A stretch of DNA of 61,278 nucleotides, counting the filler, from Stramenopiles sp. TOSAG23-6 (Eukaryota): assembly GCA_900128565.1 (NCBI GenBank). It is 19 parts of 19 records of this genome, joined end to end, with 100 filler letters (N's around TTAATTAATTAA, not from the genome) between each part and the next. Parts side by side here need not be neighbours in the genome. Positions count along the whole stretch, not along the records: positions 12,994 to 16,136 come from LT637640.1; 18 more parts are not named here. One strand, written 5' to 3'. Position 1 is the stretch's first letter. Every line of letters begins with the position of its first letter. The position numbers and the translations under genes were made by a program. Positions 3,310-56,056 of this stretch are shown here, one piece after another. The notes beneath the pieces are model-generated. The model saw nothing but the letters and a program-made list of their open reading frames with translations. It was not told the DNA's origin and searched no databases.

Positions 3310-4732
3310 ACCCTTCTCTTTTCTACCAGTCTCTTTGATCCCACAACCACCACATAAAACCAAAGCAACCGCAAGTTTAACCATTAGCATACCACAAATT
3401 TGAGGACATAAACTTTTTAATATGTGATTCCTTCCTGCAATTGGACGACTTTCGTTTGATTTTTGCTTTTGAATTTCAATCCAAAAGTGCCAAAAATCAG
3501 CAAATTCATCGCGCATTTCATCGGTTAAAAAGACACCCCCAGATTCAGAAGAGTTGCTTACGTATTGTGAAAAAATATTTTTTTTTCGTAAAAAAATCGT
3601 TAGGTACAAAATTTTTATAAAAAAAAAAACCGAAATTGAAAAAAAATGAAACATACACTCTGACACTATTAGCTAAGATGACCAACTCGACTTGGCAACG
3701 ATCTTTTTTCTTTAGAGGAAGCCAGGTATTGTAAAATAATATGTCAAAAAAATAAAATGCGTTAGATTTTTTTTTGTACATAAAAAGTTTTAATTTTAAA
3801 ATGATTTTTTCTTGAAATAAATGTGGGAGACGGATTTAAAAAAAAAAAAAAATATTTCATACGAAATTTTGTACCTAACAAAAAAAAAAACATCGTCTCA
3901 TCACCATTCCTGTTACAATGACGTCATCGCCAGCTTTACATGTGTCCACCATATCATTTTGCATTAATACAGTTACTTGTCTAGGTATCATACCAACACT
4001 AAGACTACTACACCTCTCTTGGATGCGGATTTCTTGGTAATCGCAGCAAATGCGAGATCCTTCCACAAAGTCAAATTTCCCAGATTTGCACTTACGACTT
4101 CCTGGAGCGTTTACACCATCATTAGAAGGACAAGTTTTTGGCATATCAATCACTCCACCCTGAGCTAGATCAGCAGTTACTGTAAAGGAATACCCACAGC
4201 GAGAGCTCGAGCATTTATACACCTTTGACTGCTCAAGCATTTTAACCACTCCAGTTCTAATGACTGTACCTGGAAGCTCGAGGAAGGAACCATAATCTGA
4301 AGAGCGCACTGCACTTACATTTTTTCTAGTGAAACCTGGTGGTAGATATGCTATGCGAACATGACAAAATGGCTTTAATGTTAGGTCTCGTTTTTCCATA
4401 GAAAGCGAATAATTCCGTGATTCGTTGAGTTGTGACTGTTGAGAGGTGTATGATGCAACGAATCTTCGTTGTGCTTCTAATAGAGCACGATCAAATACAG
4501 GTAGTATTCTATCTGCATAAAACAAAGTTAAAGTGCCAACACGTTGAAAATCCTCTAGTAACCACTTTGCACACACAGTAATACCAAAGTGATCTCTGGA
4601 GTCGCCTTCTGTCACAAGAGCTTCAACTTCATCTATATACCGGTTTTCCAAAAATGTAACAAAGTTTTCCTGAAAAACTTCTTCTTCTATTCCGTCGAGA
4701 CTATAGATACAATTATTTGTGGACCCATTCAT
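3310..4732 (-). CDS. MCM9: MCM9 helicase, 5' part (exons 4732-3892, 3723-3657, 3559-3310)
   Basis: GTVIRTG, zinc-finger cysteines, DYQEIRIQE, IPR, DMVDTCKAGDDV, RW..RCQVELVILAN, RNHILKSLCPQICGMLMVKLAVALVL. Confidence 0.88.
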
Positions 4733-5074: not shown

Positions 5075-6350
5075 ATGAATTATCAAGACGATCATTCTAT
5101 AGAAAGTAGTCAAATTCGTGCAGACGCAGTGAGAGAGAAGATACAAAGATCTACTACACTTAGATCCGAAGAGGAAAAGCACCGACGTCGACATCAGGAG
5201 AAGCAAAGGAAACGATTGAAAAAAGAAAAAAATCGGAAAAAACGAGAGGAGGAATCAAAGAATAACAGTGGTCCGGAGGTGGATACTACATCTATAGATA
5301 CTTCTTCGTATTCAGATAATACTTCTACAGATACAAAGAGCAGTGAATTACCTTCAGAAACAACAGAACTCCCCCAGATTGTCAAGGAAAATAAAGACAT
5401 AAATTTGTTATTAGAGCCACCGCGATTTCGCACAATACACCTTATTATCCATTTAATTGGAATTACAGTTGTTATCATTGGCGGAGGGTATGTGTTTAGT
5501 GCACTCGAACTCAAAAACGAGAAAGTGAGAGCAGAAAGATTTTGGACTCAACAAAATTTAGTGGATGAGTACCTACGTCAATCGAACGCACAATATAAGA
5601 AACTCATTTCTGGAAATTATAATGAAAAAGACTCATTACTTAGTATTCATTCTCCTGATAGCACAATACAAGAAGTAGTTGGACTTGTACCAACTTACCT
5701 TTATGAAAAATTACTACGTATTGGCAAGGGAATACAGAACTCTCCTACCAAAGATTTAAACGATGAAAGAAAGGATGAAAAAATTGTTCCAATTCCTCAA
5801 ATCAAATCTGATCAACCAAAATGGAGTTTCCCTCAATCTGTGTTTTTCATGTTTTCCGTATTTTCGACGCTAGGATACGGTGGTGGTACTTGGGCACCGG
5901 CGACTGCCGCTGGTAGAGCCTGGATTGTACGTTTTCAAAATGAATTTCGTTTTTTTTTACTATGAAAATTTTGTACCTAATAATTTTTTTGACTATAATA
6001 TTTTTCACAATACTTGCGCTTTGTGCAACATTTGGAATTCTTTATTTTCTCATAACACTAAGTTATATGGCAGAAAGGTTACTAACAGCCGTACGAAGAA
6101 AGTTCCCAAAGTTTAGACCAAGCCTGCCACTTGCTGTATTGATGTTCATTTATTTTTTTCTCTTTACATTTGTAGCAGGTTTGTTGTCCAATTGGACGTT
6201 TCTGCAATCCGTATTTTTTACAGTCATGTCATTGACTACGGTTGGTATTGGGGAGTCTCCTCGTTTTCAGACGGATAAAGTTAAAGGAATTTTAGCATAT
6301 GGTGTATATAGTATGCTTGTCGTATTTGGTCTGACTATAGTAATTGCTAT
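5075..6350 (+). CDS. Two-pore-domain (K2P-like) potassium channel (exons 5075-5926, 6016-6350; 3' end missing)
   Basis: GGYVFSALE, WSFPQSVFF..STLGYG..PAT.AGR and a second pore WTFLQSVFF..LTTVGIG. Joined by intron 5927-6015. Confidence 0.85.
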
Positions 6351-9781: not shown

Positions 9782-11120
9782 AGTTGATGAATTTCGACAT
9801 CAATCGCAGGAGTATAACCAGATAAAATAACGGCGGAATATAGAGCTGATGTATTGTGAAAACATATTTCAAAATGATTTTGTTAGGTAATTTCATACTA
9901 AAAATATTTTCAAAATGGTTTTTTGTTAGGTACAAAATTTCGTACGAAAAATATGTTTTTGATAAAAACGTACATAATCGTACAAGTTGCTCACAAATAT
10001 GTTTTGGTGGTGGTTCAAGAGTTGGCATTTTTTCATTTATTTTATTTGGAAAATTCGATTCTTTTGAATTTGGCAATTTAGTTGTCAATCTAACTGATGG
10101 AGGTATAGAAGTGGATACAATTGTCACCGAATTTACTTGGTAAATTTGGGGTGCTTTTTTTCTATGAGTTGAATTTGAAGTCGAACTCGACGTACTACTA
10201 CTTTTGGATGTTTTCGATATGGTAGATGTATTGTGAAAAAAAAATGTTTTTGGTAGAAAAAATTCGTTAGGTATAAAATTTCGTATGAAAAAAAATAAAT
10301 TTGAAATTCAATGATGAAAACGTACATGCATTCAATTTATTCGACCCGACTGAATCATTATCTGAATCAAGGTCAAAACGGCGAATTGTTAAACTATTTT
10401 CATCTGTTGATATTTTGAGCTGTTTTAGTGAGTTTGAAACGCTTTCTACACGATGTATTATGAAAAAAAAAATTTTTTTTGTTGAAATTCGTTAGGTACG
10501 AAATTTGGTACAAAATATTTTTTTGAAATGAATGATGAAAAACGAACTTGCTTCTGAGGCGTGACAAGAGCAGCCTCTAGGAGATCTGTATGCGCTACTC
10601 CAACCAATTTTGAAGGACCTGAGCATGAAAATGTTGGATTTTTGCTTAATGACTTTGTTGACGGATCAACGTGTGTCGTGGTAATTCGTCTTCCATTTTT
10701 TACACGTTGTCTATTTCGAGAGTTTCCGAGATTTGATTCACAAGGCAAAACCTGAACACTCTGAATCATATTGATGGGTTGACATTTTTGTGAAATCAAA
10801 GGTCTATTACTAGACGTATCGATTGAGGCCACTATTGATCGATCTTGACAATTACTCGGTTCAGTTGCAGCATTTAAAATTCTATTCGAGTGCTTACGGA
10901 CAAAGTTTAGAATAAGGCAAGCCAACTTTGATGGAGGGAGATCCATTTTTTTTTTATTCGCCATTACATCTTCTCGAAAATCACTGCTTGGATTTGGAAG
11001 ACGATTCATAAATGATTGAGGAGCGCTTTTCCATATATGAAGTACTGAGTCACGGAGGGAGGCTTTTCCAGATACAACTAGTGATATAGTGTCTTGGGAA
11101 TCACTGTCCATTTTGGACAT
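9782..11120 (-). CDS. Codanin-1-like protein, 5' part (exons 11120-10548, 10452-10326, 10225-9974, 9848-about 9782)
   Basis: LILNFVRKHSNRIL, RRITTT and spliced RLSALYSAVILSGYTPAIDVEI resemble conserved codanin-1 blocks. Three GT-AT introns keep one open frame. Confidence 0.55.
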
Positions 11121-13034: not shown

Positions 13035-13065
<31 letters not shown>

Positions 13066-13082
13066 TATTTTTCACAATACTT

Positions 13083-15409
13083 TGGAGAAGTTTGGTTTGG
13101 AAAATGGAATCGTGTTGATGTTGCTATAAAACGTTTTTTTCGTCCAAATGATTTTATTGATGATGAAAATTTACTTTTTGAAGAAAAGACTAGTTTTGAT
13201 GATGAAGAAATCTCAGTTTTTATGAAAACATCAAGACATAAAAGAATTGTATGTTTTTATGGTGCTGGCATTGATTCAGAAGGAAGAGAATTTATGTATG
13301 TTTTATTATTTTTCAATTTCGAATTTTTTTTTTCGTACGAAATTTTGTACCTAACGATTTTTTTTTGAAATATTTTTCTACAATACATGGTGTCTGAATT
13401 TATGGAAGGTGGGGCATTGTCGGATTTATTATGGGCAGAACCAAAAACAGTGATACCATGGGAAATGAAATTAATGTACTGTCGTGATATTGCAGAAGGA
13501 ATGGGTACGTTTTCATCATGAATTTTAATTTTGTTTTGATTTATTTCATACGAAATTTAAAATTTTGTACGTAATATAATTTTTATTTTTTTTTATTCGT
13601 ACCTAACAAATTTCAAATTTTTTTAAATATTTTTCACAAAACATCTTATTTACATAGAAATGGAGTGTTGCATAGAGACCTAAAGACCCCTAATATTCTT
13701 CTTGATATGAATGGAAATTGTAAAGTTGCTGATTTTGGTTTATCTAAAGTATTTGATAAAACTCTGGCAAGAAGAAAAAGTATAGGTTCAATACATAAAA
13801 ATAGTGAAATAGTATGTAATGATGTATTGCTTGAAAAAGAAGAAAAAAGAGACAATTGGTTTTCATCGCTTCGGAATCGAATCAAAACAATATGTAGTTT
13901 TTCTCAAAGTAATAAAAACAATACAAATGATAAAATTGTATCGTTTGATTCAAACCAAAAACAGCAAATAGATCAAAATAAAAATGTAACCAAAATCATA
14001 CCTCATGAAAAATGTATTGTACACAAAAATAATACTAAAACATCATTAAAAACTGAAATATCTAAAAATAATACTAAAAAATCATTAAAAACTGAAATAT
14101 CTAAAAAAAAGAGACCTGACGAAAATGATATAAAGGAAACAAAAGAATCGAATTTTTCAATTAGTAGTAGTATTTCAACACCCACAGTAGTGTTTCATCG
14201 AAGAAAAAAACATTTAAATAATGTATGTTTTCAAAATTGAATTTTTTAATCCATATTTTTTTTCATACGAAATTTTGTACCTAACAAGTTTTTTTTGTAG
14301 AAAAACAAAATATTTTTCACAAGACATGAAACTGCAAGTATAAGAAGAAGTAGTCGTTCGAATGATTCAAATGATTTCAATGATTCAGAAGATTGGAAAG
14401 ATTTTGAACAAACAATGACAACTGGAGTTGGGACTCCTTCTTGGATTCCACCTGAATTACAATCTTCAAACTCAAANTATGTACATTTTCATTTCAATTT
14501 CGAATTTATTTTCTTTTTCATAAAAAATTTCGTACCTGAAAAAATAAAAAATTTTAATATTTCTTCACAAATTATACTCGCTATGGTCACTATATTGATG
14601 TGTATGCATATGGAATTATTATGTGGGAAATTATGACTCAGGAACTACCTTGGCAGGAATATGTACATTTTCATCATTAATTTCAATATTTTTTTTTACT
14701 ATGAAAATTTTGTATCTAACTAAAAAATCAAATTTTTGAAATATTTTCCTAAAAATACAGAATCATTGGGCAGATATTCGGAGAGCTGTGAATAAAGGTC
14801 AACGACCAAAATCAGATAAAGAAGCAAAAATACGATTGAGTGCACCTGTTGGGTATTGTGAACTGATGGAAGAATGTTGGGATGTACGTTTTCATTATGA
14901 ATTTCAAATTTATTTTTTTTAGAAAAAATTTTACCTAATGTTTTTTTTTTAGATAATACTATTTTTTATCATGAATTTCAATTTTTTTTTTTTTCTAAAA
15001 AAAATATTTACCTAATCAATTTCAACATTTGACAACATATTTTTCACACTATATCAAGATCCTTTGAAAAGACCAGATTTTGAAAATATTTTCGACCGTG
15101 TATCAAGAATGTACGTTTTAATTATGAATTTCAAATTAATTTTTTTTTCGTACCAAATTTTGTACCTAACGATTTTCTTTTTTAAATATTTTTTCACAAT
15201 ATATGACTATACGGAATTCAGCGACATCACAAAAAGACAATTTTGCTTTGGATATGATTGATGAAACATCTGAAACTAATAGCTCAAATAATTCTAATAA
15301 TAACAACTCTATTGTGATTAATGTGATAGACACGAAATCTCAATCACNTATTGATGTTCTTTGTGGTAGTAATTGTAGTGATTCATTGATTGCTGACGAT
15401 GTGATGTAG
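13083..15409 (+). CDS. TKL-family protein kinase, catalytic domain and tail (8 exons; 5' end missing)
   Basis: [59 protein letters not shown]. Introns 13296-13388, 13505-13644, 14223-14327, 14481-14575, 14663-14760, 14884-15054, 15111-15204. Confidence 0.92.
13296..13388 (+). mobile_element. Representative introner-like intron (GT-AT); more than 45 full or partial family members in the window
   Basis: GTATGTTTT...TTTCGTACGAAATTTTGTACCTAAC...GAAATATTTTTCTACAATACAT, preceded by exon AT. Confidence 0.75.
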
Positions 15410-15597
15410 ATTTTGTTGATTCCATATTGACCAGATGTGTGAAAAATATTATACAATTGAATTGTAAAGAAAAAGAAAAAATATTTGTGATTTTTCTTAT
15501 ATCTATATGAAGCATTTTGCAGTGGCTTAATTATTGTAGTAATTAATAGTATGTAAAAAACAATAATAATTTATATTAATAGATAGGACAAATAAAT

Positions 15598-16134: not shown

Positions 16135-16236
16135 ATNNNNNNNNNNNNNNNNNNNNNNNNNNNNNNNNNNNNNNNNNNNNTTAATTAATTAANNNNNNNN
16201 NNNNNNNNNNNNNNNNNNNNNNNNNNNNNNNNNNNN

Positions 16237-17291: not shown

Positions 17292-17574
17292 ATGACAACA
17301 TCAAAAAATTGGTTAGAAGGCATCAAATTTGCGGAGCAGGCCATACAATTTGAAGAGGAAGGGAGTTTACAAGCAAGCAACGCAACTTTCATTAAAGCTC
17401 TTGACTTACTAGTGAAAGGATACACCGCCTCGAAAGAAAAGGAAAAGGCCATAATGATGGATACACTTTCTTCTTATATGAAACAAGCGGAGGCGGTAAA
17501 AACACGGCTTACGTCTACTTGTGTAAGTGTTAACGATGGAGCTTTACGTTTCTCAGGTCCGATAGACGAATCAT
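17292..17574 (+). CDS. MIT-domain protein, exon 1 (mirror copy 18042-18324). A second MIT exon lies scrambled at about 17686-17930.
   Basis: GIKFAEQAIQFEEEG..ATFIKALDLL..YMKQAE and GIKCVKRAIEVDGEG..LYVKACDFF fit MIT three-helix domains. Confidence 0.7.
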
Positions 17575-18599
17575 GTATGGGGCAAAATAATTTTTTTTAG
17601 TAAAAAAAATTGTTAGGTACATAATTTTATATGAAAAAAAATAAATTTGAAATTAAATTGGTAAAAAATTAAAATGAAAACGTACATGCTGAAGAGCAGA
17701 AACAAAAAAATCACAAGCTTTCACATACAAATTCATGGCGAGTGCTGTTTTGCCTTCACCATCAACTTCTATTGCACGCTTCACACATTTTATACCGGTT
17801 TCATAACTAGTATGAAGTTTACTACTAGAACATTCAGCGTGCAATAGAAGTTGATGGTGAAGGCAAAACAGCACTCGCCATGAATTTGTATGTGAAAGCT
17901 TGTGATTTTTTTGTTTCTGCTCTTCAGCATGTACGTTTTCATTTTAATTTTTTACCAATTTAATTTCAAATTTATTTTTTTTCATATAAAATTATGTACC
18001 TAACAATTTTTTTTACTAAAAAAAATTATTTTGCCCCATACATGATTCGTCTATCGGACCTGAGAAACGTAAAGCTCCATCGTTAACACTTACACAAGTA
18101 GACGTAAGCCGTGTTTTTACCGCCTCCGCTTGTTTCATATAAGAAGAAAGTGTATCCATCATTATGGCCTTTTCCTTTTCTTTCGAGGCGGTGTATCCTT
18201 TCACTAGTAAGTCAAGAGCTTTAATGAAAGTTGCGTTGCTTGCTTGTAAACTCCCTTCCTCTTCAAATTGTATGGCCTGCTCCGCAAATTTGATGCCTTC
18301 TAACCAATTTTTTGATGTTGTCATTATTTTGGCGCAGATGAAATAGTAGATTGTAATCCTATATTAATTAATGGAGAGCTGCAGCTAATGAACAATGGCT
18401 GAACAATGATGTCAACATCAATAATAATTATTGTAGGTAATATTGTCAAGTTGTCAACAAACACGTGCCACGTGGCCAGTCAAAAAAAAAGGTTTTTGTT
18501 TTCAAAGAAAGAGTCAACAACAAAGAAGAAGAAAGAAACTCTCTTGTCTTGTTTAATGTTAAACATATATTTCGATTGAAGACGAAATTTATTTTTAAA

Positions 18600-25026: not shown

Positions 25027-25797
25027 ATGTCTTCGTCTAGTTCGTCACCGGGTGCAAATCATTGTGAAAAGTTGCGCGTTTTATTACGAGCCAACGGTGG
25101 TTTGTTAGCTCGTTTACATTTTTTGCGACGCAATGTTGATACTGCAGATAATACTCCAAAATGTATGGTGTCAAAGGAATATAAGCCAATTGTGTCGTTT
25201 TTGGATAAAAAATTCCCCGCAATTGACGTGGAGGTGCAGTGTGCGAAACATTACCCAGTGTTTTTAAATAATGCTCAAACAATTATGGAAGAATTGGAGA
25301 CACATTATCGAACTTTATTGGATGTGATGGATTTTGGTTATGCTGCATTGAAATTCCTTCGTGAAATTTTCGACTCTCTTTGGCTTTTAAATTTTAGGTG
25401 CAACAGGCGCCTGACAGCGGATGCACTCGACCTTATGGTCGGATATTCTTCTATCCACATCTTACTTTCAGACTTAAAGCGTGCCAAATTATTAGTTTCT
25501 TTATATGGTGCCGCATATCAAGCTGTTCATAAGCAAGAAGAAAAAGAATACAGAAGTATTTGTGCATACATTAAAGAATTCACGAGACCCATTCAAAAAA
25601 TTCGTGTATGTTTTCATTTCAATGTCCAATATATTTTTTTGTACGAAATTTTGTACCTAACGATTTTTTTTACACCAAAAAAAAAAAAAATATATCTTCA
25701 CAATATATGAACAATTAAAACCTGGAGCTCATGTTTTAGGTATCGCTTTAGCAGAACTCGCTGCACCTTTGTCGGTCTGTACAGATTTTGCAAGAAT
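25027..25797 (+). CDS. NCKAP1: NCK-associated protein 1 (Nap1/Hem, WAVE complex), 5' part
   Basis: EKLRVL..GLLARL, KKFP, YRTLLDVMDF, N..LT...LDL. Intron 25606-25708 gives KIR|EQLKP. Confidence 0.85.
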
Positions 25798-26204: not shown

Positions 26205-28114
26205 TTATTCTGTGATTTCAGTGGATTTTGATCCAGCAGCAAGTTGTTGATCTTCCATTTTTGTATTTACTGGAACTTCTGTGCCTGTGCCTACTTGGCA
26301 CTTGCTCAGTTTACAATTATCATTAATAACAACATTATGACAAATGATAGATTTTTGTAAGACACATCCTTCAGCAATTTTTACATTATCCATTATAATA
26401 CAATTTAGTATTTGACACTTTGATCCAACTATAATATTTTTCCCTGCAACACTATCCTTTAAAACAGATTTCTGTCCCAGATGAATATTTTCACCAACAA
26501 ATGAAGCACGAACATTTTTACTCCGACTCTGGTCATTCTCTTGATATTTTTTGGGTAATAAGTGAAACCATGAACATTCATGACTCTCCATAGGTGGAGT
26601 GAAATCAACAAATCCAAAATTTAAATCAGAGTAATGCTCAATACTATCAGCACGAGCACAGAAATACTTGGACGATGGCATTAATGTATTGTGAAAAAAT
26701 ATTTCAAAAAAAAAAAATCGTTAGGTACAAAATTTCGTATGAAAAAAATATTAAATTAGAAATTCATATAAACATACATATAGAATAACATCGAATAGGT
26801 TGATGATTAAAATTAGTCACCATGGATGAACCACTCACAAAATTTGCTGCTTCACAGGATCCAGTCACTAAAGATATATATTGGAAAATATTATAGAAAA
26901 AAAATTGTTAGGTACGGAATTTTCATACAAAAACAAAAATAATTTGAAATTGTGTAGAAAAAAAATCAATTTGAAATTGACCCTAACCCTAATGAAAACA
27001 TACATGCCGTATTAAATTTCATATATGATTGAACTACCTTAGATGGTGTAAACTGCGAACAATGTCCAGATATAGAAGAATTATTTTCAACTCTCATTCT
27101 TTCAATGAATTCTTCTGGAAGAGCTTTTATGTATTGTGAAAAAATATATTTTTTTTTTCAACAAATATTTGTCAGGTACAAAATTTTCATACAAAAAAAA
27201 ATAAAAAAAATGATGAAAACATACAAACCCCTAAATTGACGATGAACGAGATAGGGAACAAATTCCTCCTTCAACAAACGAATCTGTGGTAAATACTCAA
27301 GAAGACGGAGAGTCCAGTGTGCAAACACGTACAAATGCATATCCTCGACATCTGAGTGTATAGTCATTGAAGGCATACGTCTTAAAAGTGACTTTGGCAG
27401 CGCAAATTTTGCTTCTCTTCCGGGATCTTCAATGACACACAAAACACGACGTACGTCGTACACATCCAAATTTGAAGTCTTGCTTGTTTCTATTCCAGCT
27501 AAACCAACTATTTCGTGTACTTTCTTTTTCTTTACAGGTACAGGTGTTGCCTTTCTACCTTTCATTTTGCCTGCTGCTGCTTCACTATAGACTTTGTGCA
27601 TCATTGTCACTGCAGCACTTTGAAGTCGGTGCGCATCTACTAGCCTACATAAAACATCTTCACACACCAAATCACCAGCCATTACACAGAAATCTCCACG
27701 AATTTGATCTTTCAAAAAACGCAATACGTCGGCGGAACCTTGTGAAGCATCAACACCAATAACTTCAACCTTCAACTGGAAACAAAGAGATGTTGTATCC
27801 CTATTCGGACTATTTGTATTTTTTGCTACAGAAGTAGTAGAAATCGTCGTTGACCAAGATGAAGAATGTTGCTCAACATATGCTTGTACCGCTTTTGCGT
27901 GTGCAAACTCGACAGCAACCATAACATCTCTGAAACCTGCGCGCTCAAGGTTAGCTAGTTGATATGCTAAGAGTGGCTGATTACACACAGGTAAAAGTAC
28001 ATTTGGAATTGTTTCACTCAAAGGAGATAATACGTTTCCAATTCCAGCAGACATTAATATCGCTTGCAACGGCATCGGTCTACATGATGATAAAGTAGGC
28101 AATACAGATGTCAT
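26205..28114 (-). CDS. EIF2B3: Translation initiation factor eIF2B gamma subunit, complete (4 exons)
   Basis: LQAILMSAG..LLPVCNQPL, GSADVLR, DMHLYVF, PYLV.RQF, IRCYS, C-terminal hexapeptide beta-helix. GT-AT introns 27129-27224, 26874-27003, 26684-26777. Confidence 0.88.
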
Positions 28115-30494: not shown

Positions 30495-32333
30495 ATGCCA
30501 CGTAAAGTAATGACACACTCACGAGGTGCTGTTATTCTTCAAAGTATGTGGCGTGGTTGGGCGACACGAAATATTGCGCTTGATGTAGTAGAGTGTGTTG
30601 ATGCGAATGGTAGAGTTATATTATTAGAAACAGATTTCTCTGCTAACAAAAACTCAAGCGATGAAGCAGTAGAGATTTTAGCGTATGAAGCAGATCCACC
30701 GTATGGTGTTCTAGGGCTTTACAACCCTCTTAGTAATCTAGTAGTGCCTATTGATGAAACATCAGTGAATATAGATGTTACTATAGAAACAAAAGAAAAA
30801 GAAAAATTAGATTTGAAAAAGTCATTCAAGAATACGTTAGAATTGAATAATGAAACAAAAAAAAATAATGAATTGAATAATGAAACAAAAAAAAATAATG
30901 AATTGAATAATGAAACGAATACAGATATATCTATTATTGGTATTATTGATAAAAGTGTATATAACAATACTATAGAAATGCCTATAGGTAAAAACATGTT
31001 GAATGATGGAAAACATACAAATTACATACAAGAAAAATACAATGAAACAAAGGAGCAATTAGGGTTAAGGTTACAGGACCAATTTGGATTGGATGAAACA
31101 AATGAAACAAATGAATTAATAGACCAATTGACCGCAGTGGAACAATCATCATTAGGGTTAGGGTCAAATTCATTTCTAGATAATTTGTTACAAGATAATG
31201 AAATTAGAGATTTGCATGAGAATCCTCAAAACTCTGCAACTATAGAAATAGAATCAAAAAAATACGTTTTTTTTTTTTCAAAATTTTTTTTTTTTTAATT
31301 TTTTTTTCAAATTTTTTTTCATACAAATTTTTATATCTAACAATTATTTGTACAACTACGAATATTTTCTCACAATATATTGTAATAATGGATGAAACAT
31401 CAACCGTATCACAAGATAGAACATCAAAAGTAGAAAAAAAAACAAAAACAATAAACAATGAAAAAACAAAAGAATTAAAAAAATCAAAATTAACAAAATT
31501 AACAAAAGATGAGAAAAAACAAATCAAATCAAAAGTCATGACAGAAACATTTCATGTTTTAGAATCAGTTTTGAATGATATTTTATTGTCTCCACGTAAA
31601 CCTGATATTGTTGAACATTTTCCTCTACCTACAACAGTACAAGAATATCGTAATGACAAAGCAAATGCTTTACTCAATGTTCAAAATAACCCTAACCCTA
31701 GACAAAATAATCAAAATAATCAAAATAATCAAAATTCAGAATTATCTCCAATCAACAAAATTGATACATTTGATGATGATAGGGTTAGGGTTTCTAATGA
31801 AATATTATCACCAATAGATCGAAAAAGTATTGATCAAAAATGTAATGAATTACTCAAAAAACATAGAAATGCATTGTATGTATGTTTTATTTTTTTTTTT
31901 GAGCCTTAAAAAAAAATCGAATTTTTTTTTTTTTTAGTTTCATACGAAATTTTGTACCTAACAAATTTTCAAAATTTTTTTTTGAAATATTTTTCCAAAA
32001 TCCAGAATGATTCTGCTATTTTTTTGCAACATAGAAATATTTTATATAATATTGATCATAAAAAAGAAATGTACAATCCTAACCCTAACCCTAGAAGAAG
32101 ACGTCGAAAACGCACGAAACCTTCAACAATTAGATTACAAATGGAAAGAAATAATAATGAACTTCAAAAAAGTTTACGTATGAAATTTGATACAAATTCT
32201 ACAAATTCAAGACAATATAACCCTAACCCTAATGAATCTAGAGAATATTATATTTCAGATAGGCAAAACAGTCATGATAGACAATATAACCCTAACCCTA
32301 ATGAATCTAGAGAATATTATATTTCAGATAGGC
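30495..32333 (+). CDS. IQ-motif low-complexity protein (exons 30495-31261, 31381-31879, 32006-; copy on - strand from 37501)
   Basis: IQ motif AVILQSMWRGWATR; frames are joined by two family introns. Confidence 0.7.
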
Positions 32334-32503: not shown

Positions 32504-34740
32504 AGGCAGTTGAAAGTAAATTTTCCACAGTATCCGTATTTCTGCATGGTGTCATAATGATTTCATTGTTCAAACGAAATTCGACACAAAGTTTAATTTG
32601 TGAATTTGGCGGTTTGGCTATTTTTCTATCAGCATAAGACACGGATGATATTTCATTTTGTTTTTTTCTATCAGCATAAGACACGGATGATATTTCATTT
32701 TGTTTTTGTTTTTGATTTTGATAAAACTTCAATGTTGAATGTTTAGTTATTCTATTTTTGTTTCCATTCGTTTTGTTGTTCATCATAGAACTTGACTGGT
32801 ATTTTGATGTATGGTTATTTGTGGTGAAAAAATATGTGTTGTAGTAAAAAAAATCATTAGACTCAAAAATTAGGTACAAAAATATTTTTACGAAAAAAAA
32901 ATTAAAAAAAAAAAAAAAATTCAATTCAATTCAATTTTGAAAACGTATTGTTTCCAGTTGCTTTGACTTTTCAATACTATCTCGCGGCAGAACACGTTTT
33001 CTTACTAAATGTGATCGAATATTGTAACATATTGCATTATCTTTTCTACATCGCACAGTACACATTTTTTTATTAGAACTCCAACGTAAAATTTTACATG
33101 CTTCCCATGTGTTGTAAAAAATATTTTGATTTATTTCGTTAGGTACAAAATTCACTATGAAAAATAATATTTTGATTTATTTTGTTAGATACAAAATTCA
33201 CTATGAAAAAAAAATAAAATCGAAATCAATGATAAAAACGCACATAATCCATCCCAAATCCCAATATAATCAGAATTACAGGTTGCGATTTCATCTGGCC
33301 AACTTTTTCTATGTATTTTGGAAAAATATTTCAAAAAAAAAATGTTTTGTTAAGTACAAAATTTCGTACGAAAAAAAATCGAATTTGAAAAAAAATAAAA
33401 CATACATCGTTTTCTAAAGCACTGATGGCAGAATACCGTTTCATATTATTTCTTTCAATATTATTATTATGCTTTATTTTTGGCAAAATAGGGCACTCAT
33501 CCTCACTATCAGTACTACTTATAATAATGTTTCGATTTGGTTTTTGCTTTTTTTTCAATTTTTGGAATTTTGTATTTTTTTGCGTTTCGATGTCCTTCAT
33601 CAATTGGATAATTTGTCCTCGAAGTAAAAGTTCGTCTGACGTGTTCGTTCCATAATTAGAATCATTAGAAATACCATTTGCTGATACTACTCCACTGGTC
33701 TTACTTCGATTTATTCTATCCATCGCAATTTGTAAAGTTTTTAAACTTTTTTCAAAATTACCCATATTTTTCAAAATTTTACCTTGGTGATAACGTAACC
33801 GAGATTCATCTAATCGAGATTTCCGCCAATCAAACAAAAATTCAGATTGTAGTCGTACTGCATTTCGACTCTGATAATCTAAATTTAAACGGTGCGCAAC
33901 GAAACATTCATCAAATTGTGCTAATGTGTTATGAAAAAATATTTCAAAAAAATTGTTAGGTACAAAATTACGTACGAAAAATAAATTCGAAATTGAAAAA
34001 AAATTAAACGTACATGCTTCACTAGAAAAACCTAATTTATATAATACTTCACCAAGCGCGGCACAACAACGCAGAAGATAACAACATCGGATTTCATACA
34101 GAGTTGCAGCCATGACATCTGATTGTATATCGCAATCCAGTTTTATCAAAAGTGCTTTAGATAGTTCGAGAGCGTTACGAGCTTTAGAATATTGCCCAGC
34201 GTTAACAAGAATGTAGCCTAAATTCAACTCTGACTGACCTGGAATACAATCAACCATAGGCTTTTCACCCATATGTAGTTTCTCTGCAAGTCGAACACTC
34301 TTTTCAGCTAATAGTTGGGCATTGGTGTGTTTGCCATAATCACTTAAAGATAAGCCGTGGTTTGTCCATAACCGCCACTGTTCCAACTGATCGCTCTGTT
34401 TCAGTTTACCAGATACTCTTTGAAAGTGTTTCCCAGCTAGATCATAATTTTCCAGCGATGAAGTGCGTTGATTTAACGACTTCTGGGCATCTGCCAAACA
34501 ACGATAAGCTCTTGCGAAATCGAGAAGCCTTAAATTTTTTTTACTTTCACTTTTGGCATGTTGAAGAGATACTTTAAGAAGCGATACTTCTTTTTGATGA
34601 TAGTTTTCAGCCTTTTTGAAGATACCCTTGTCAAAGTAAACACGACCAAGTGAATTCAAGCAATCACACTCTTTACCAATGTCGTTTTCTCGCCTGGCTT
34701 GGGAAATTTTACTCTTGAGAAAGAGAATCTTATCATCCAT
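32504..34740 (-). CDS. TONSL: Tonsoku-like (TONSL) protein: N-terminal TPRs, Tudor-like segment, UBL-like segment; 3' end missing
   Basis: ECDCLNSLG..YHQKE..ARAYRCLAD TPR start; IKLCVEFRLNNEIIMTPC..TVENL. Introns 33924-34013, 33311-33405, 33107-33243, 32817-32948. Confidence 0.65.
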
Positions 34741-38950: not shown

Positions 38951-40971
38951 ATGCTTTTAGCAGCATGGACAAGACGTTTCGCACTTGTTTCATGATGGAG
39001 AGGGTTAATTGAAGGTATTCTAGATTTTGTTTTCTTTACAGAATTTTCGTCTTCCGCAGAGCTTGAATAGTTTTTCGCTTGATTGCGTCTTTGTCTTCGA
39101 GAACGACGGCCAGGCTTGGTAGTCTTCGTGTCAAAAGGATTTTTGTTCATCAAACTATTGAATATGGTTTTCTTCTTTGAATGAAAATATATAATAGCAG
39201 CAAGTAACGCGAGCATTAATCCACACGAAATTGCGCTGATACCAACTATAAATGAGAGTTTCCAATAATGATGCATAAAATATGCCATGCCAGTAAGTTG
39301 TGCAAGAAAACGAATATTTGCCGATTTAACACGAATTCTTTGATTTGATAACTGAGCTGTGATCATTCCCGTTGGGAAATCCATTTTTTCTCTATAACCA
39401 TCAAAAACAACAATACTTACAACATCTTCATCTTTAAAAAAGCCAAATAATAATGGAACTACAAGACAAAAATGTCGAATTTGTTGAATCATCCAAGGGG
39501 AATACGATAGAAGGAGAGGTCGTATTGAACGTGCCAAAACAACTCCTAACTGATCACGAAATTGTGTAGCATGACTGACATTTGATGTTTCACCATCAGG
39601 GTTAGGATTTTCATTACTTTTGTCAGGATTTGAATATAATTCAGAGAGTAACACAAGATTTCTGTAGTTAATGCCCATGCTACTGCGCGAAGCTGCATGT
39701 GTCATGTATTGTGAATTTTTTTTATTTTTTATTTTTTTATTGTTAGGTACGCAATTTCGTATGAAAAAAAAAACGAAATTGAAAAAAAATGAAACATACA
39801 TATCCGCTTCAGCTCTCATTGTTGATAAAATATATTGACTATCTGCCTCAGGGTTCGTGCTAAAATTTTGTAATAAAGCTTTCTTTGTATCATTCCGCTC
39901 TTTTTCATTCATTGTTTCTGTTTTTTCTTTACTAAAAAAATTGAAATGATCTTCATGTTTTTGTTGTTTTTGTTGTCTTTGTTGTTTTTCATTATTTTCA
40001 TTATTTTCTGGTGTAGAATCGTCCGTCACATCACATAGCTCTTCATCCAAATTACAGTTAGAACCTTCTTTCGGAACAGAACTGTTGTTAATACTACTTG
40101 TATTGTCCCACCCAAGCATATTCTTCAAATTTTCCCAACAATATTGGATCCCTAACTTTCCATAAAGTATAGGATACGACAACGCAGTAGAAAGATTATC
40201 AAGCATTTTCTGTTCTTGGGTTGTTGACGAACTGTCGTTCACATCGAGCATATGCTTTGGAGATATATTGACATTTTGAGCACTTGCCTGTAAAGCAGCC
40301 TCTAGTGGAGATAGTCGGAGCTCTGTAGTGAGCATACTTACACCAAGATCGGCATTCTGTGCAGTCCTTGGTAACACGAAATCAATAGTAACAGTGTAAC
40401 GGTAACCTGGAGCAAGTGTTCTTAAATGAGACGTTCGCTCTTCTTCCTTTAATAATTCGAAATATTTCCTTTGTGTGTTCAACGTTTCCTCTGTCAAGTC
40501 CATCGACTGTGAGTCCATATTATACAAATTCACCATTTCGTGGTTTATTTCCCAATGATTGAACTTTCTCACTAAATCAACAGTGGCTGAGGGATGCTCT
40601 TGAGTATAATCAAAATACAAAGGTCTTTCAATGCGCATTTTTGGTACAAGATGCCTATAAGTTCTAATGTATAATAGTATTGATAGACTACCAATAAAGA
40701 TAACGGTGAAAAAAAGGCCAATCCCCTTGAAAGCAACAAACATTAACCAATAACCCCACTTTTCCGCACGTTTAAGTTCCTTTTCAGTACGCTTCTCAGA
40801 AGGTAATATGCGTGATATTAAAGCCGATACGAAGTGAAACCAAACTCTTAAGGGAAAAGAAACTACTGATATACATCCTGAAAGTAGCGCAGCTATAAAC
40901 GAAGGAATTGGAAATTTGCCCAAAGCCTGTGCAAGATTGTAAGCCTTCGATCTATGTAAGTCTTTTGGCAT
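38951..40971 (-). CDS. Seipin (lipid droplet biogenesis) with a long luminal insertion
   Basis: Transmembrane helix, PLYFDY, Y.VTIDFVLP....N.DLG, A.IRF.A.LTG..Y.M..Y, second transmembrane helix. Frame-preserving intron 39704-39799. Confidence 0.85.
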
Positions 40972-45385: not shown

Positions 45386-46180
45386 ATTAATGCAGGATAA
45401 CAACCTTGTGGTAATTCAATGGATGTGAGTTCAGATTGCTTATCTAAATGCCACCAAGGGAAAATTCTAAGGGTGCAAATTCCATTTAAAATAGCGGATG
45501 TTGAACCAGTGTTTTCTTCATGTTTCTTAAAATCTGAGACATCAGCGATAATAATTGCTTTACCATCATCTCCGAGCCAGCATAATCCACCACAGATGAT
45601 CGATTGTTCTTGATAGACATATATAGTGAAAAATATATATTTTTTTTTTGTTAGGTACAAAATACTAAAAAAAAAATAAATTTAAAAAAAAAATTCATAA
45701 TGAAAATGTACATCCCCAAAAAGACGCCATTTATTTTGACGGGATGACCAAAGAGCTGCACCACAACCACCAGACACAGCAATGCGAAGTGAGTCATTGC
45801 TTACTGCAACATGGTACAGTGGCCAGACATTGTTACTCGTAAGATACGTCGGGGTTACCGGGATACGGGATAGTTTCAAAGTCTTTAATCCACCTTTCAG
45901 TAAAAAAACTGCATCATCTGCAAGTAACGATACTGGGGCACGCGACGATCCACATGAACCACCCACTGCTTTTTGTCTCATGAAACGAAACGAAGTTAAA
46001 ATTGTTCGAGCAGGTTTGATTTTGTTCCTATTTCCCAGTGTTGAAGGTGATGATCCGATGCCAGAAGGTGATCGATCACCGCTATTACTACAACTATTAC
46101 CTACAGCAAATAATGTATATCCATGTTTACCCCATGTTATACAATTCTTTGAAATTCCTTTATGTAGTGGTTCGCCAGAT
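45386..46180 (-). CDS. RIC1: RIC1 (RAB6 GEF subunit), internal exons
   Basis: WGKHGYTL, YL..N.WP, IAVSG..G, KWRLFGD|VYQEQ..GGLCW. Intron 45619-45711. Confidence 0.8.
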
Positions 46181-46281
46181 CTTGTATTTTGGAAAAATAT
46201 TTCAAAAAAAAAAACTAAAATTTGTTAGGTACGAAATTTCGTAGTAAAAAAAAACGAATTTGAAAAAAAATTAAAACATAC

Positions 46282-48565: not shown

Positions 48566-51500
48566 TTTTTTTTTTTTTTTTTTTTTGTTAGGTATGAAAT
48601 TTCGTATGAAAAAAAAAATTTCAAAAAAATTTCAAAAAAAAAAAAAAAATTGATGTTGAAAACGTACATGAGTTTGTTTACATCTATACAGAAATCGACC
48701 ACAAGATTCTAATAAAGTACAACAGAGAATAATATTATGATTTTTAAAATCAAATAATAAAAATTTAAGAAATGAAAATGTCATCGAAGGAGGACAAATT
48801 CCAAATTTAGTTAATTGACTGATATACCGAATATTTTTACATTTTGATTCTAATCGTGTTCCTACAAATTTCTTATTTAAATAATAAAATTCTTTTTTCA
48901 ATGCAGCGACTAAGTATTATGAAAAAATATTTCAAAAAAAAAAAAACTAAAATATGTTAGGTACGAAATTTCGTATGAAAACCAAAAAAAAAAAAATTAA
49001 ATTAGAAATTCATATAAAACATACAATGGAGGAACAATATCTGTAAATATTGGATTTAGAATTGCAGCAAGACGAGAATAATAAGGTAGTAATTCTGTCT
49101 GATTTCGTGATACTCTGAAAATAGCTTGGACTAATCTACATGTATTGTGAAAAAAATATTTTTTTTTTATAAAATTTGTTAGGTACAAAAAAAAAATTTC
49201 AAAAAAAATTCTAAAAAAATTGTTAGGTACAACATTTCGTACGAAAAAAAAAAATCGATTTTTTCTGAAAAAAAAAAATAAAAACATACGTCTTGCACTT
49301 CTCGAATTTAGATAACAAAAATCCACTGCAAATTTATCTATACTTCTTTTGGTACAACATTTTGGCAACTCTAATAAAAGCTCTTCTAGAGCTAAAGATG
49401 GTCTTTCTAATGTGACGTCATCAAATAAGGATTTCATACCAAAATTATCATCATCATCATCATCATCAACATCATCTTCATCTTCTGTCTCTTGTTTTTT
49501 ATTTGTAGTTGTTATAGGTATCGTTTTATTACTTTTTTTTACTGAATTTGAACTAGAAAATTGCGATAATGCATATATTGAGAAAACATATTTCAAAAAA
49601 AAAATAAATTTTGTTAGGTACAACATTTCGTATGAAAAAATATTTTGATAAAAATCATAAAAATCATAAAAATGATAAAAATCATAAAAATCATAAAAAT
49701 CATAAAAATCATAAAAATGATAAAAATGATAAAAATGATAAAAATCATAAAAATCATAAAAATCATAAAAATGATAAAAACATACATCATCTAGAGTACC
49801 TGCTTTAAATGATACTTCTGGATTTTCTTTAGGATTATTGCTTATCGATGATGCTCTTAACTTTCGTGCGTTTTCACGATCTTTTTTCTTACCATCATGC
49901 TCCTGTAACAAAATGTCTGGTACTTGTTCAGTAATATCAGCAATTTCTGTATAAAAACTTAATTCATCACCATCAGCAAATGGACCATCTACTGTATTGT
50001 GAAAAAATATTTCAAAATTTTTTTACCTAAAAAAAAAAATTGTTAGGTATAAAATTTACTATAAAAAAAAAAAAAAAAAAAAAAATTGATTTTTTTTGAA
50101 AAAAAAATTTGATTTTTTTTTAAAAAAAAATCAAATTTTTTTTTCAAAAAAAATCAATTTTTTTTTTTTTTTTTTTTTTTATAGTAAATTTTATACCTAA
50201 CAATTTTTTTTTTTAGGTAAAAAAATTTTGAAATATTTTTTCACAATACAGTAGATGGTCCATTTGCTGATGGTGATGAATTAAGTTTTTATACAGAAAT
50301 TGCTGATATTACTGAACAAGTACCAGACATTTTGTTACAGGAGCATGATGGTAAGAAAAAAGATCGTGAAAACGCACGAAAGTTAAGAGCATCATCGATA
50401 AGCAATAATCCTAAAGAAAATCCAGAAGTATCATTTAAAGCAGGTACTCTAGATGATGTATGTTTTTATCATTTTTATGATTTTTATGATTTTTATGATT
50501 TTTATCATTTTTATCATTTTTATCATTTTTATGATTTTTATGATTTTTATGATTTTTATGATTTTTATCATTTTTATGATTTTTATGATTTTTATCAAAA
50601 TATTTTTTCATACGAAATGTTGTACCTAACAAAATTTATTTTTTTTTTGAAATATGTTTTCTCAATATATGCATTATCGCAATTTTCTAGTTCAAATTCA
50701 GTAAAAAAAAGTAATAAAACGATACCTATAACAACTACAAATAAAAAACAAGAGACAGAAGATGAAGATGATGTTGATGATGATGATGATGATGATAATT
50801 TTGGTATGAAATCCTTATTTGATGACGTCACATTAGAAAGACCATCTTTAGCTCTAGAAGAGCTTTTATTAGAGTTGCCAAAATGTTGTACCAAAAGAAG
50901 TATAGATAAATTTGCAGTGGATTTTTGTTATCTAAATTCGAGAAGTGCAAGACGTATGTTTTTATTTTTTTTTTTCAGAAAAAATCGATTTTTTTTTTTC
51001 GTACGAAATGTTGTACCTAACAATTTTTTTAGAATTTTTTTTGAAATTTTTTTTTTGTACCTAACAAATTTTATAAAAAAAAAATATTTTTTTCACAATA
51101 CATGTAGATTAGTCCAAGCTATTTTCAGAGTATCACGAAATCAGACAGAATTACTACCTTATTATTCTCGTCTTGCTGCAATTCTAAATCCAATATTTAC
51201 AGATATTGTTCCTCCATTGTATGTTTTATATGAATTTCTAATTTAATTTTTTTTTTTTTGGTTTTCATACGAAATTTCGTACCTAACATATTTTAGTTTT
51301 TTTTTTTTTGAAATATTTTTTCATAATACTTAGTCGCTGCATTGAAAAAAGAATTTTATTATTTAAATAAGAAATTTGTAGGAACACGATTAGAATCAAA
51401 ATGTAAAAATATTCGGTATATCAGTCAATTAACTAAATTTGGAATTTGTCCTCCTTCGATGACATTTTCATTTCTTAAATTTTTATTATTTGATTTTAAA

Positions 51501-51832: not shown

Positions 51833-52377
51833 CCATCAGAGTTATCAAATCGCAATGAAATTTCTGTAGATTTATTTGTGAAACAACTTGGATTGATTGG
51901 TGTTAATTCAAATATAAAGGAACGTGTTGCGCTTGCCCATGTACGTTTTAATCATACATTTTTTTTTTTTTTTTTTTTTCATAGAAAATTTTTTTTTTTT
52001 GGAAAATATTTTTTTTACAATACATTCTCAAAACAAACGACTTCGTTATCTTGCAGATATACATATCAGTAAAGATAATAATGTTTCGATTGATGTTGGC
52101 TTGAAAATGGTTGATGAAAAATCATCTCTTGGAAGCCTTCAAGGCACACAAAATATGTAGGTTTTTTTCATCATGAATTTTTAATTTTTTTTTCGTACGA
52201 AATTTCGTACCTAACAATTTTTTTTGAAATATTTTTTCACAATATAGGATTGATTTTCAGACTGAATTGTATCCAAATGGTTTGACCATTTCTGGTGCCG
52301 GTGCTGGTAGAGAATGTACAGCTAGTGGTGTATTGGCAGATGTTATTGAAATCATTAGAAGAACAGCATCAGAATAG
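51833..52377 (+). CDS. Homoserine dehydrogenase domain, last three exons
   Basis: RLRYLA, SLQGTQNM|IDFQTELY, L.ISGAGAG...TASGVLAD. Introns 51941-52025 (GT-AT) and 52157-52247 (GT-AG). Confidence 0.9.
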
Positions 52378-55066: not shown

Positions 55067-56032
55067 CATCAGGGTTAGGATTATCCTCCAAATACCAACC
55101 TCGCCAATTGAAACCTCGTGGCATATTATTTACAATCACAAGAACATCTTTACCATCAACACGAGCAATTCGTTGAACAGATGGTGTATGTGCTCAAGGA
55201 AAATATCTAAAAAAAAAAAAAATAGGTACAAAATTTGGTATGAAAAAAACGATAAAAAAATTCAATTTTGAAAAACGTACAGAGTAATTCTGAAAGTATA
55301 CATCTATTGCTAGTCCATCTGTATCTAAATAATCATTCACTTTTGAAATATCAAGTTTCATATTTGGATTTTCTGTTTCGCCGTATTTACGCCACGAACC
55401 TTCAATTTTTTCCATTGAAGGCTCGAAAAGAGTATATATTTTGAGAAAATATTTTAAAATAAATTGTTAGGTACACATATTTTTTTACGGAAAAAAAATT
55501 AAATTTTTGAAATGTGAAAACAAACATGTTTCAGATGAGCACCTTGATCAGGTTCATCCATTAGTAATTCATATAAAGTTCGTAAGCCTGCAGAAAGCCA
55601 CATTTCATGAAGATATATTGTAAAAAAATATTTCAAAAATTTCATTTTGTTTTCTTAAGTAAATATATTCGTATGAAAAAAAATATTTGAAATTTAATTT
55701 TGAAAACGTACATAATCGAATGAAGAGTCAATATTAATTATACTATTTTTCAAATAAACTTCTAATTCATTTGGAGTAATTATTATGTTTATTGGATTAG
55801 TTTTTGTATCAAATTCTGTACCTAAAGAAATTTCTCTAACTTTTTCGATTTCCTTTGTAAAAGCATCTTTAATCTCCTTTTTAAAGTATTCAATAGTTAT
55901 GCCATTTTTAATATCTGTATTACATACTAAAATTCTTATTCTTGGTCGAAATGTAGGAGATAATCCAACTCTTCTTGCAATGGCAGGAATCTCATCACTC
56001 ATTAAACATGAGTTTTTAAATTCCCGTCCTTC
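55067..56032 (-). CDS. Four internal exons of an unidentified protein
   Basis: GT-AT introns 55613-55711, 55434-55525 and 55188-55280 give one continuous open frame. Confidence 0.65.
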
Positions 56033-56056
56033 ATGTGTAGTGAAAAAAAATTTTTT

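Follow-up and report, generated by a model that had tools for sequence, protein, structure and literature searches.

The window analysed here is the whole 61,278-nt stretch of DNA from Stramenopiles sp. TOSAG23-6, which consists of about 19 contigs of ~3.1 kb in descending length, joined by linkers of the form N44-TTAATTAATTAA-N44, and is AT-rich (guanine-cytosine content 21–41% across the window). Its long frames are open under the standard code, and by Pfam it carries eukaryotic genes for a protein kinase, NCKAP1, an eIF2B-gamma-like protein, RIC1, seipin, AAR2 and MCM, with further matches to kinesin, GDP-mannose dehydratase, guanylate-binding protein, VIT1, rhomboid, FYVE and U-box. Our subject is a family of short, repeated introns in these genes, best seen in the kinase gene on the contig at 12994–16136, most of which begin with GT and appear to end in AT. 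The kinase contig is present in two small DNA runs of a single organism, in two metagenomes from seawater or marine sources and, from one sample, in two seawater metatranscriptome runs; since seawater and marine runs contain it, the organism is marine. The pattern is real and well above chance, and on the sequence it reads as an introner family with a 2-bp target duplication and a co-opted YAT acceptor in a marine protist.

Each of the seven introns of the kinase gene (13083–15409) starts with GTAYRT. With these donors fixed, the acceptors that keep both the reading frame and the family alignment lie at 13388, 13644, 14327, 14575, 15054 and 15204, where the intron ends in AT, and at 14760, where it ends in AG, and joining the exons at these borders gives a single open frame of 509 codons, which bears out the statement of an earlier note on this DNA that six of the seven introns restore the frame and the kinase motifs at AT and that the seventh has AG at the same aligned position. 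Intron 2 can be placed to the codon: exon 2 ends at position 115 of the Pfam profile PK_Tyr_Ser-Thr, exon 3 begins at 117, the junction codon falls between them, and there is no in-frame AG option. The note had further held that the frame is restored only if these introns end in AT, and this stands for intron 2 and for the 21 of 30 non-AG introns of the window that have no in-frame, stop-free AG within −30 to +12 nt, but it does not stand for intron 3, where an in-frame GTAG lies 27 nt upstream of the AT and its use would insert 9 codons in a low-complexity loop, nor for the rest of the 9 of 30 that have such an AG. The AGs to which it pointed near 14327 (4 nt upstream) and near 33311 (2 nt downstream) are indeed out of frame.

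Across the window, 36 unique complete introns were retained (Table 1), and their last two bases are AT in 28, AG in 4, TT in 2, GT in 1 and TC in 1. The AT majority of the earlier tally (26 GT-AT versus 8 GT-AG among about 41) thus persists, with other figures; introns truncated at the end of a contig, and the mirror copies that palindromic contigs hold, were probably part of that tally. Stretches crossing the N linkers (3309, 6351, 42223 and 51576) and one that runs into the N run at a contig end (41933) were dropped before counting, and 32948 was not counted, since the exon on its 3′ side is a short tail that can be read in two ways; the frame, flank and signal statistics below refer to 34 of the 36 introns. 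The version of intron 31880 on a duplicate contig (36116/36120), which is out of frame there, was rejected as a probable chimeric join. At 20115–20139, also left out, removing 25 nt (GTATCT...AAAACAT) restores the frame between an EF-hand exon and a membrane-helix exon with no in-frame AG, which may point either to a frameshift error or to what is left of a very small intron ending in AT.

The introns are copies of one family of ~90–170 nt, which reads GTAYGTTTT, then TACCTAAC, then AAATATTTTTCACAATAY plus 2 nt, the shared blocks being, in order, GTAYGTTTTCA, TYATGAATTTC, a T-run, TTTTCRTACGAAATTTTGTACCTAAC, a second T-run, AAATATTTTTYCACAATAY and two further bases. A profile built from an alignment of 24 clear introns gives 67 nhmmer matches in the window, and copies in different genes are 80–87% identical over ~100 nt. 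The longer members contain internal partial duplications or a tandem repeat, while in a 33-nt mini-version (56033–56065) only the family ends and TACTAA remain. Relative to the coding strand, 42 of the 67 matches are sense, 2 antisense and 23 unclear, both antisense cases being artefacts (a 27-nt partial match and a palindrome mirror), and in conserved genes a copy occurs about every 1.5 kb. A comparison of the kinase contig with four seawater runs gave summed depths of ~2,000–80,000 in the bins over introns, against ~0–5 for most exon stretches, and one metagenome alone placed 6,308 contigs on it; the family is therefore a very high-copy repeat in these waters. Further copies were sought in metagenome contigs, where a strict pattern found 0 and a looser one 34 loci, none matching the family model at E 0.001, so that these look like chance matches; viral contigs gave 0 matches to the family pattern.

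Two side observations concern individual copies and bins. Intron 50458–50670 holds, between donor and branch block, an internal array with a unit of ~9–10 nt (TTTTTATGA / TTTTTATCA). The intron bins at 13258–13433, 14226–14313, 14842–14929 and 15106–15193 draw thousands of contigs not only from DNA runs but also from RNA libraries; in the latter, the source could be RNA that is unspliced, introns after excision, or DNA carried over.

The splice signals of the family are those of U2-type introns up to the last base. At the donor, G1 is found in 33/34, T2 in 34/34, A3 in 31/34, G5 in 31/34 and T6–T8 in 34/34, which conforms to the U1- and U6-complementary consensus GTRNGT. A CYTRAY-type branch motif, mostly GTACCTAAC, lies 32–48 nt from the 3′ end in 29 of 31 introns, and, as in U2-type introns, a CTRAY stands upstream of a pyrimidine tract, here a T-run at −16 to −11. 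What is lacking is the terminal AG, present in 4/36 against 28/36 with AT. At the acceptor the sequence runs T-run, C, A, C, A, A, T, A, Y, A, T; position −3 is a Y in 33/34 (C in 23/34), position −2 an A in 30/34, and position −1 a T in 29 and a G in 4. In front of the acceptor stands a local block of fixed form, TTTTTCACAATAY, while the distance from branch to end varies by 16 nt; a variable distance together with a fixed block indicates that the cut would follow the block and not a ruler from the branch. Nor is "first YAT" the rule, since a TAT within the conserved AAATATTTTT block is, by eye, skipped. The intron ends do not pair (expected pairs 1.3 on average versus 0.9 in the control; folding −3 to −30 kcal/mol). 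Three members start ATACGT instead of GTACGT (31262, 52754 and 32948), of which 31262 is in frame only as AT..AT, and 52754 as AT..TC or AC..AT.

Reading frames and homology place the acceptor where the family alignment does. In 32 of 34 introns the family-aligned acceptor leads into the longest downstream frame, for which chance would be ~1/3; one case is a tie (25606), and the remaining exception is intron 46281, with an in-frame AG 1 nt beyond the family-aligned position. Exact junctions have independent support in kinase intron 2 (Pfam), RIC1 intron 45711 (profile) and eIF2B-gamma intron 26777 (homologue), the joined eIF2B-gamma model being free of gaps across the last of these against P0002, a 45%-identical full-length relative. 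The earlier note had named raw reads with AG in place of the assembled AT as one way to refute it, and this way is closed by independent contigs, which carry AT: the genomic AT at 13643–13644 recurs in DNA contig X3 record 6 (13635–13870, sole difference at 13766) and in RNA-library contig X5 record 23 (13636–13786), the AT at 15203–15204 is covered by X4 record 15, and no variant letters are listed at the kinase acceptors among contigs of public runs aligned to 12994–15630. The genomic AT at the acceptors is not an assembly error, and the frames support the view that most introns of the window cannot be GT-AG if the genes are intact.

The terminal dinucleotide is tied to the insertion site. 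For 22 of 34 introns, the exon dinucleotide just before the GT is identical to the one that closes the intron (shuffle mean 17.8, P 0.007), the matching flanks being AT/AT in 19, TT/TT in 2 (5927 and 51219) and GT/GT in 1 (3656). AT/AT matches alone could reflect a site preference. All three introns that end in TT or GT, though, are preceded by the same dinucleotide, and in this small sample at least three non-AT matches have P 0.0005 when 3′ dinucleotides are shuffled among introns. A locus-specific flank match is the criterion for target-site duplication in the introner literature (PMC9860276; this and the other papers cited are drawn on in part), and since the non-AT matches are of this locus-specific kind, the match between 5′ flank and 3′ end is, judged from the sequence, a 2-bp target-site duplication. 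It would follow that the element proper is GTAYGT...AATAY and that the intron-final AT is the second copy of the target; the family therefore appears introner-like, bringing its own 5′ site and branch site and being cut, on the 3′ side, at the end of the duplicated target.

Decay of the duplication is asymmetric. Seven introns (10547, 13505, 25606, 53411, 27224, 50954 and 55280) keep the 3′ AT while the exon side reads, in that order, AA, GG, GT, GT, TT, AC and CT, and in the four where the 3′ side has changed with the flank still AT, the new ending is AG in all 4. This is as expected if the 3′ copy were under a splicing constraint and the 5′ copy under a coding constraint.

The explanation that we favour, with a probability of roughly 0.6, is that the introns are copies of one short, non-autonomous, introner-like mobile element with a co-opted dinucleotide acceptor. 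The element, GTAYGTTTT...AATAY, would carry a U2-type 5′ splice site and the yeast-like branch TACCTAAC at the distance given above, and would insert into genes with a 2-bp target duplication, most often of AT. The 5′ cut in the pre-mRNA would fall just ahead of the GTAYGT and the 3′ cut right behind the duplicated dinucleotide's second copy, so that excision takes away the element and one target copy and gives back the original reading frame. The intron-final bases would then be those of the target, AT in ~3/4 and sometimes TT or GT, with AG where the T later mutated to G. The most likely mechanism is that the second step of the spliceosome accepts YAT besides YAG, at a site positioned by the TTTTTCACAATAY block. 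That a major spliceosome with YAT as its default 3′ site has co-evolved with an AT-duplicating introner spread to thousands of genes is a bolder proposal, which we rate at somewhat under even odds, and in which the first G of the intron would meet a final U instead of a G in the second catalytic step. The TT, GT and TC ends and the three AT starts suggest that the terminal bases may be nearly free, in which case the cut would be placed by the intron-internal block. The AG-independent acceptor that the earlier note had proposed is upheld in so far as the Y-A-T context is kept and most introns would not be GT-AG in intact genes, and it needs amending in that the AT is probably a duplicated target and not a free-standing signal.

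Several observations weigh against this explanation. No spliced junction of any family intron was seen among RNA-library contigs or in protein searches; the kinase introns are absent among the 15 joints listed (there are 360 more), and the listed joints link different intron copies, as a repeat family would. Two 151-nt RNA-library contigs of depth 2 are unspliced, namely X5 record 17, which crosses the donor at 13296, and X5 record 23, which begins 9 nt inside kinase intron 2; these may be pre-mRNA or carried-over DNA, such libraries being able to contain DNA and their depth being no measure of expression here. Protein searches returned no junction-spanning product for kinase exon 1 or kinase exon 3, and of the four matches to the eIF2B-gamma exon the only one from the same organism (P0001) reads into the intron. 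One 158-nt RNA-library contig, X6 record 25, offers a hint of a splice junction and nothing firmer: it matches the genome only from 13080 on, over 148 nt without differences, its first 10 letters are unlike the intron, and the match starts at most 3 nt from a TT or AC acceptor predicted to precede the first kinase exon, the nearest AG following 8 nt downstream of that start, but a strain variant in the T-run would also be possible. A terminal inverted repeat (GTATGT versus GTATTGT, by eye) is weak, no autonomous element or transposase was seen in the window, and transposition is suggested by the duplication and the copy number alone. In the assembly itself some contigs are palindromic or chimeric, and at least one frameshift probably stems from a homopolymer.

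Perfect duplications do not fix the borders: for the 19 AT/AT introns, GT-AT, TG-CA and AT-AC borders give identical mRNA, and the sequence does not decide among them. One could thus place both cuts two bases earlier, giving AT-AC introns (NN-AC in general) with the constant AC as the true 3′ terminus, a register that has in its favour that the element ends in a constant A-Y, with the frequent C at −3, and that pairing of A1 with C(−1) is an established rule for AT-AC introns; at 13505–13644 it predicts the junction GGAAT|ATCTTATT, where the GT-AT register predicts GGAATGG|CTTATT. We think it unlikely. Moving both borders 2 nt to the left creates a TAG stop in the AG members 14663 and 31880 (the latter worked out by hand); at kinase intron 2 it turns G-M-A-Y-L-H into G-I-S-Y-L-H, G-M being the usual form in kinase subdomain VIa and in the consensus G-M-x-Y-L-H; it moves the conserved GTAYGT to +3 to +8, where it would not line up with the contacts that U1 and U6 usually make; it would make the 5′ dinucleotide intronic, yet that is the variable one; and its AC end is out of frame for intron 5927. 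The AG members and the decay pattern favour the GT-AT register. A different objection would be that the copies are not spliced at all, being either gene-disrupting transposon insertions or DNA eliminated in another nucleus or life stage, as ciliates do with sequences bounded by a dinucleotide, whose signature is likewise a short direct repeat that leaves one copy behind, and the assembly would then display the form before excision; the two unspliced contigs and the sole same-organism protein on record, which runs into an intron, would fit. This too is an improbable account: every complete copy has a 5′ splice site and a branch sequence, sense orientation prevails at 42 to 2 artefactual antisense cases, and neither DNA excision nor random disruption would need such signals or orientation, while 33 of 34 copies, one tie included, restore the frame exactly, and the standard code leaves the long frames open. 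With an insertion about every 1.5 kb, conserved genes could not function unless the copies were removed, and we infer their removal from RNA because frames are restored, splice signals stand in every copy, conserved genes carry them at this density and their orientation is sense.

A minor, U12-type spliceosome, in which the branch distance sets the 3′ end and several dinucleotides are tolerated, could accommodate the endings, and GT-AT does occur among those U12-type introns of human and mouse that are non-canonical (PMC1557818); by eye, moreover, GTATGTTTT and GTATCCTTT show two differences, and CCTAAC is like CCTTAAC. We regard it as very improbable, as the 5′ site is not RTATCCTT, with G at +5 in 31/34 and T at +6 in 34/34 instead of CC, the branch-like motif lies 32–48 nt from the 3′ end in 29 of 31, not at the 10–20 nt of the U12-type branch site TCCTTRAY, and an Rfam scan of the window was empty. 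The remaining thought is that these are ordinary GT-AG introns that have been mis-modelled, nearby AGs being used and the frames resulting from assembly errors or wrong donors. The 9 of 30 non-AG introns with an in-frame AG in reach, which count against our preferred explanation, and the frameshift-like assembly errors lend this some substance, but the other 21 have no such AG, three junctions (kinase intron 2, RIC1 45711 and eIF2B-gamma 26777) are fixed to the residue by profile or homologue, and independent contigs show the identical AT, so that we give it hardly any credence.

Table 1. Kinase exon and predicted family introns in the window. Borders are written as exon flank|intron start..intron end; "frame" means that the joined exons are in frame.
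Feature	Position	Strand	Remarks
Kinase exon (partial gene; contig begins in preceding intron)	13084..13295	+	PK_Tyr_Ser-Thr profile 13-72; open in joined model
Family intron AT|GT..AT, 93 nt	13296..13388	+	in frame; EF-M|VSEF
Family intron GG|GT..AT, 140 nt, flanks mismatch	13505..13644	+	profile 115/junction codon/117; AT in X3, X5 contigs
Family intron AT|GT..AT, 105 nt	14223..14327	+	in frame; AG 4 nt upstream out of frame; in-frame GTAG 27 nt upstream
Family intron AT|GT..AT, 95 nt	14481..14575	+	acceptor frame and family alignment
Family intron AT|GT..AG, 98 nt	14663..14760	+	AG at family-aligned position; both borders 2 nt left give TAG stop
Family intron AT|GT..AT, 171 nt, internal partial duplication	14884..15054	+	CWD|QDP keeps CW-xx-DP-xx-RP spacing
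Family intron AT|GT..AT, 94 nt	15111..15204	+	frame; AT covered by X4 record 15
Family intron, MCM-like gene, GT|GT..GT	3560..3656	-	GT/GT flank match; in-frame AG 3 nt downstream; MCM_OB in preceding exon
Family intron, K+ channel-like gene, TT|GT..TT	5927..6015	+	TT/TT match; no in-frame AT or AG nearby
Family intron AT|GT..AT	9849..9973	-	frame; in-frame AG 3 nt downstream
Family intron AT|GT..AT	10226..10325	-	frame
Family intron AA|GTTCGT..AT	10453..10547	-	frame
Family intron AT|GT..AT	17573..17685	-	frame; mirror copy 17927-18045 on palindromic contig
Family intron in NCKAP1, GT|GT..AT	25606..25708	+	Nckap1 profile 6-184 in preceding exon; two downstream frames tie, 50 codons each
Family intron, eIF2B-gamma-like gene, AT|GT..AT	26684..26777	-	joined model aligns gap-free to P0002 across junction
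Family intron AT|GT..AT	26874..27003	-	frame; in-frame AG 6 nt downstream
Family intron TT|GT..AT	27129..27224	-	frame
Family intron, donor ATACGT, AA|AT..AT, 119 nt	31262..31380	+	only these borders in frame
Family intron AT|GT..AG	31880..32005	+	frame; duplicate contig 35669-38799 diverges within its 3′ block
Family intron AT|GTGCGT..AT	33107..33243	-	frame
Family intron AT|GT..AT	33311..33405	-	frame; AG 2 nt downstream out of frame
Family intron AT|GT..AT	33924..34013	-	frame; in-frame AG 3 nt downstream
Family intron, seipin gene, AT|GT..AT, 96 nt, itself open in frame	39704..39799	-	frame; seipin domain in gene
Family intron in RIC1, AT|GT..AT	45619..45711	-	RIC1 profile 78 at exon end, 81 at residue 3 of next exon
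Family intron in RIC1, AT|GT..AAG	46181..46281	-	in frame only with AG 1 nt past family position
Family intron with internal tandem repeat, AT|GT..AT	50458..50670	+	frame; mirror copy 49573-49785 on palindromic contig
Family intron AC|GT..AT	50954..51103	+	frame
Family intron TT|GT..TT	51219..51331	+	frame; AG 2 nt downstream out of frame
Family intron AT|GT..AT	51941..52025	+	frame
Family intron AT|GTAGGT..AG	52157..52247	+	frame
Family intron, donor ATACGT, GA|AT..TC (equivalent to AC..AT)	52645..52754	-	junction restores CDE|CTINDCG, zinc-finger-like stretch
Family intron GT|GT..AT	53317..53411	-	frame
Family intron CT|GT..AT	55188..55280	-	frame
Family intron AT|GTTTGT..AT	55434..55525	-	frame
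Family intron AT|GT..AT	55613..55711	-	frame
33-nt mini-intron AT|GTTTAC..AT, TACTAA and in-frame TAA	56033..56065	-	removal joins open frames of 350 and 120 codons

The assembly is fragmented and of the amplification type, as its palindromes, a duplicate and the many contigs that terminate within a copy of the intron family (profile matches in the window) indicate. The contigs at 16237–19379 and 48566–51677 are palindromes over their whole length, and 29197–32001 is the exact reverse complement of 35995–38799, the two copies parting ways in an intron, within its conserved 3′ block. All this looks like amplification or assembly chimeras at the repeat. On the minus strand at 16960–17000 the start of an aldehyde-dehydrogenase-family gene shifts frame at an A-run (...SISAQ / KLADLNTKK...), which looks like a homopolymer length error rather than an intron, and a similar frame change occurs at ~52960. 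Tandem arrays with a period of ~108 nt and 76–85% identity lie at 8640–9491, 15638–16136, 59406–60133 and 60181–60785, one of them inside the long open frame 8623–9648 and one 3′ of the kinase. A telomere-like motif, TAGGGTTAGGG, occurs 20 times in the window with at most 1 mismatch, against 0.06 expected, at 913, 7603, 21761, 24782, 26981, 31059, 31152, 31690, 31779, 32077–32094, 32221, 32290, 45233 and 58285–58302 and in copies on 35669–38799; both strands carry it, and it occurs inside coding frames, where it reads NPNP or LGLG, in an intron and in intergenic sequence; it could be a regulatory word or stem from interstitial insertions of telomeric repeats. The window gave no matches in Rfam and tRNA scans, and a protein-atlas search returned nothing beyond broad AAR2 clusters, from which a cluster look-up yielded no organism.

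Few signals in eukaryotic genes are as constant as the AG that ends U2-type introns, and the known mass exceptions alter the 5′ end or depend on hairpins; if the introns described here are spliced as their frames imply, the textbook donor and branch are kept and only the last base is replaced. If this is true, it isolates how the second step finds and accepts its acceptor and provides a natural system in which acceptor choice is uncoupled from AG in the presence of canonical 5′ and branch sites, and it means that an introner can spread without creating an AG and that more types of transposon are able to become introns. Gene finders and introner surveys based on GY-AG would mis-annotate or miss almost every gene of such genomes, and there is a practical consequence in assembly as well, where contigs break at the repeated introns. 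In the article texts that were searched we found no report of a genome with GT-AT as its main class, though an earlier description is possible; a literature search with the motif TACCTAAC returned unrelated primers only.

Among non-canonical introns, those of marine diplonemid single cells are said to have been the subject of a primary report by Gawryluk et al. in 2016. The nonconventional introns of euglenids and of marine and hemistasiid diplonemids share with the present ones a large share of non-GT-AG borders and a proposed transposon origin, and those of diplonemids were likewise predicted from single-cell assemblies without transcript data, but they have no U1-complementary 5′ end and their ends are paired, where here we find GTAYGT, TACCTAAC and no pairing (PMC6221363, PMC12621601), so that the family shows neither of the features that define the nonconventional class, a 5′ end unlike the U1 target and stable pairing of the ends. 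Amoebophrya (Farhat et al. 2021, PMC7789003) is likewise a marine protist; >60% of its introns are non-canonical, and it has repeated intron families and border direct repeats of 3–5 nt, but these introns, as far as the cited part of that paper goes, have no common terminal dinucleotides, carry inverted repeats of 8–20 nt that form hairpins and sit in a GC-richer genome with no detectable U1, in contrast to the U1-like 5′ site and the absence of predicted end-to-end pairing here. In Fritillaria borealis the introns derived from miniature inverted-repeat transposable elements are again transposon insertions with target duplications and a non-GT-AG majority (PMC11282704), and they are spliced by an adapted U2 spliceosome (Henriet et al. 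2019, as summarised in PMC11282704); their 5′ end, however, is non-canonical (AG-AC, AG-AT) and their ends are inverted repeats, whereas here the 5′ and branch sites are canonical and only the last base deviates. The statement of the earlier note that the mass exceptions of Fritillaria, Amoebophrya and euglenids have other consensus sequences thus agrees with these sources, as it does for diplonemids. GT-AT itself is a rare border pair among U12-type introns and a very rare one among U2-type introns (PMC1557818; bioRxiv 10.1101/2020.10.12.336362); the known examples (Sheth et al. 2006, PMC1557818) have the same borders and are productively spliced, but amount to a handful per genome, while here the pair is the majority class and lacks U12-type signals.

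The closest likeness is to introners. Elements that bring one splice site along and obtain the second from the duplication are already known among them (PMC9860276, PMC11282704), and those of Chrysochromulina (Gozashti et al. 2022, PMC9860276) are the same kind of short, high-copy, sense-oriented elements in the genes of a marine protist, with the donor supplied by the element, the acceptor by the duplicated target, and the length of the mRNA unchanged. The published introners were found among annotated introns and have duplications of 3–9 bp (PMC9860276), as against 2 bp here and an acceptor that is AT and sometimes TT or GT, and a later survey, in the part cited, expected the 3′ sites to be AG and AC, and curated or threw out families whose sites were unfamiliar (PMC12130899). 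As the AT would be the second target copy in a mobile family, the phenomenon most probably belongs with the introners that co-opt a splice site from their own duplication (PMC9860276).

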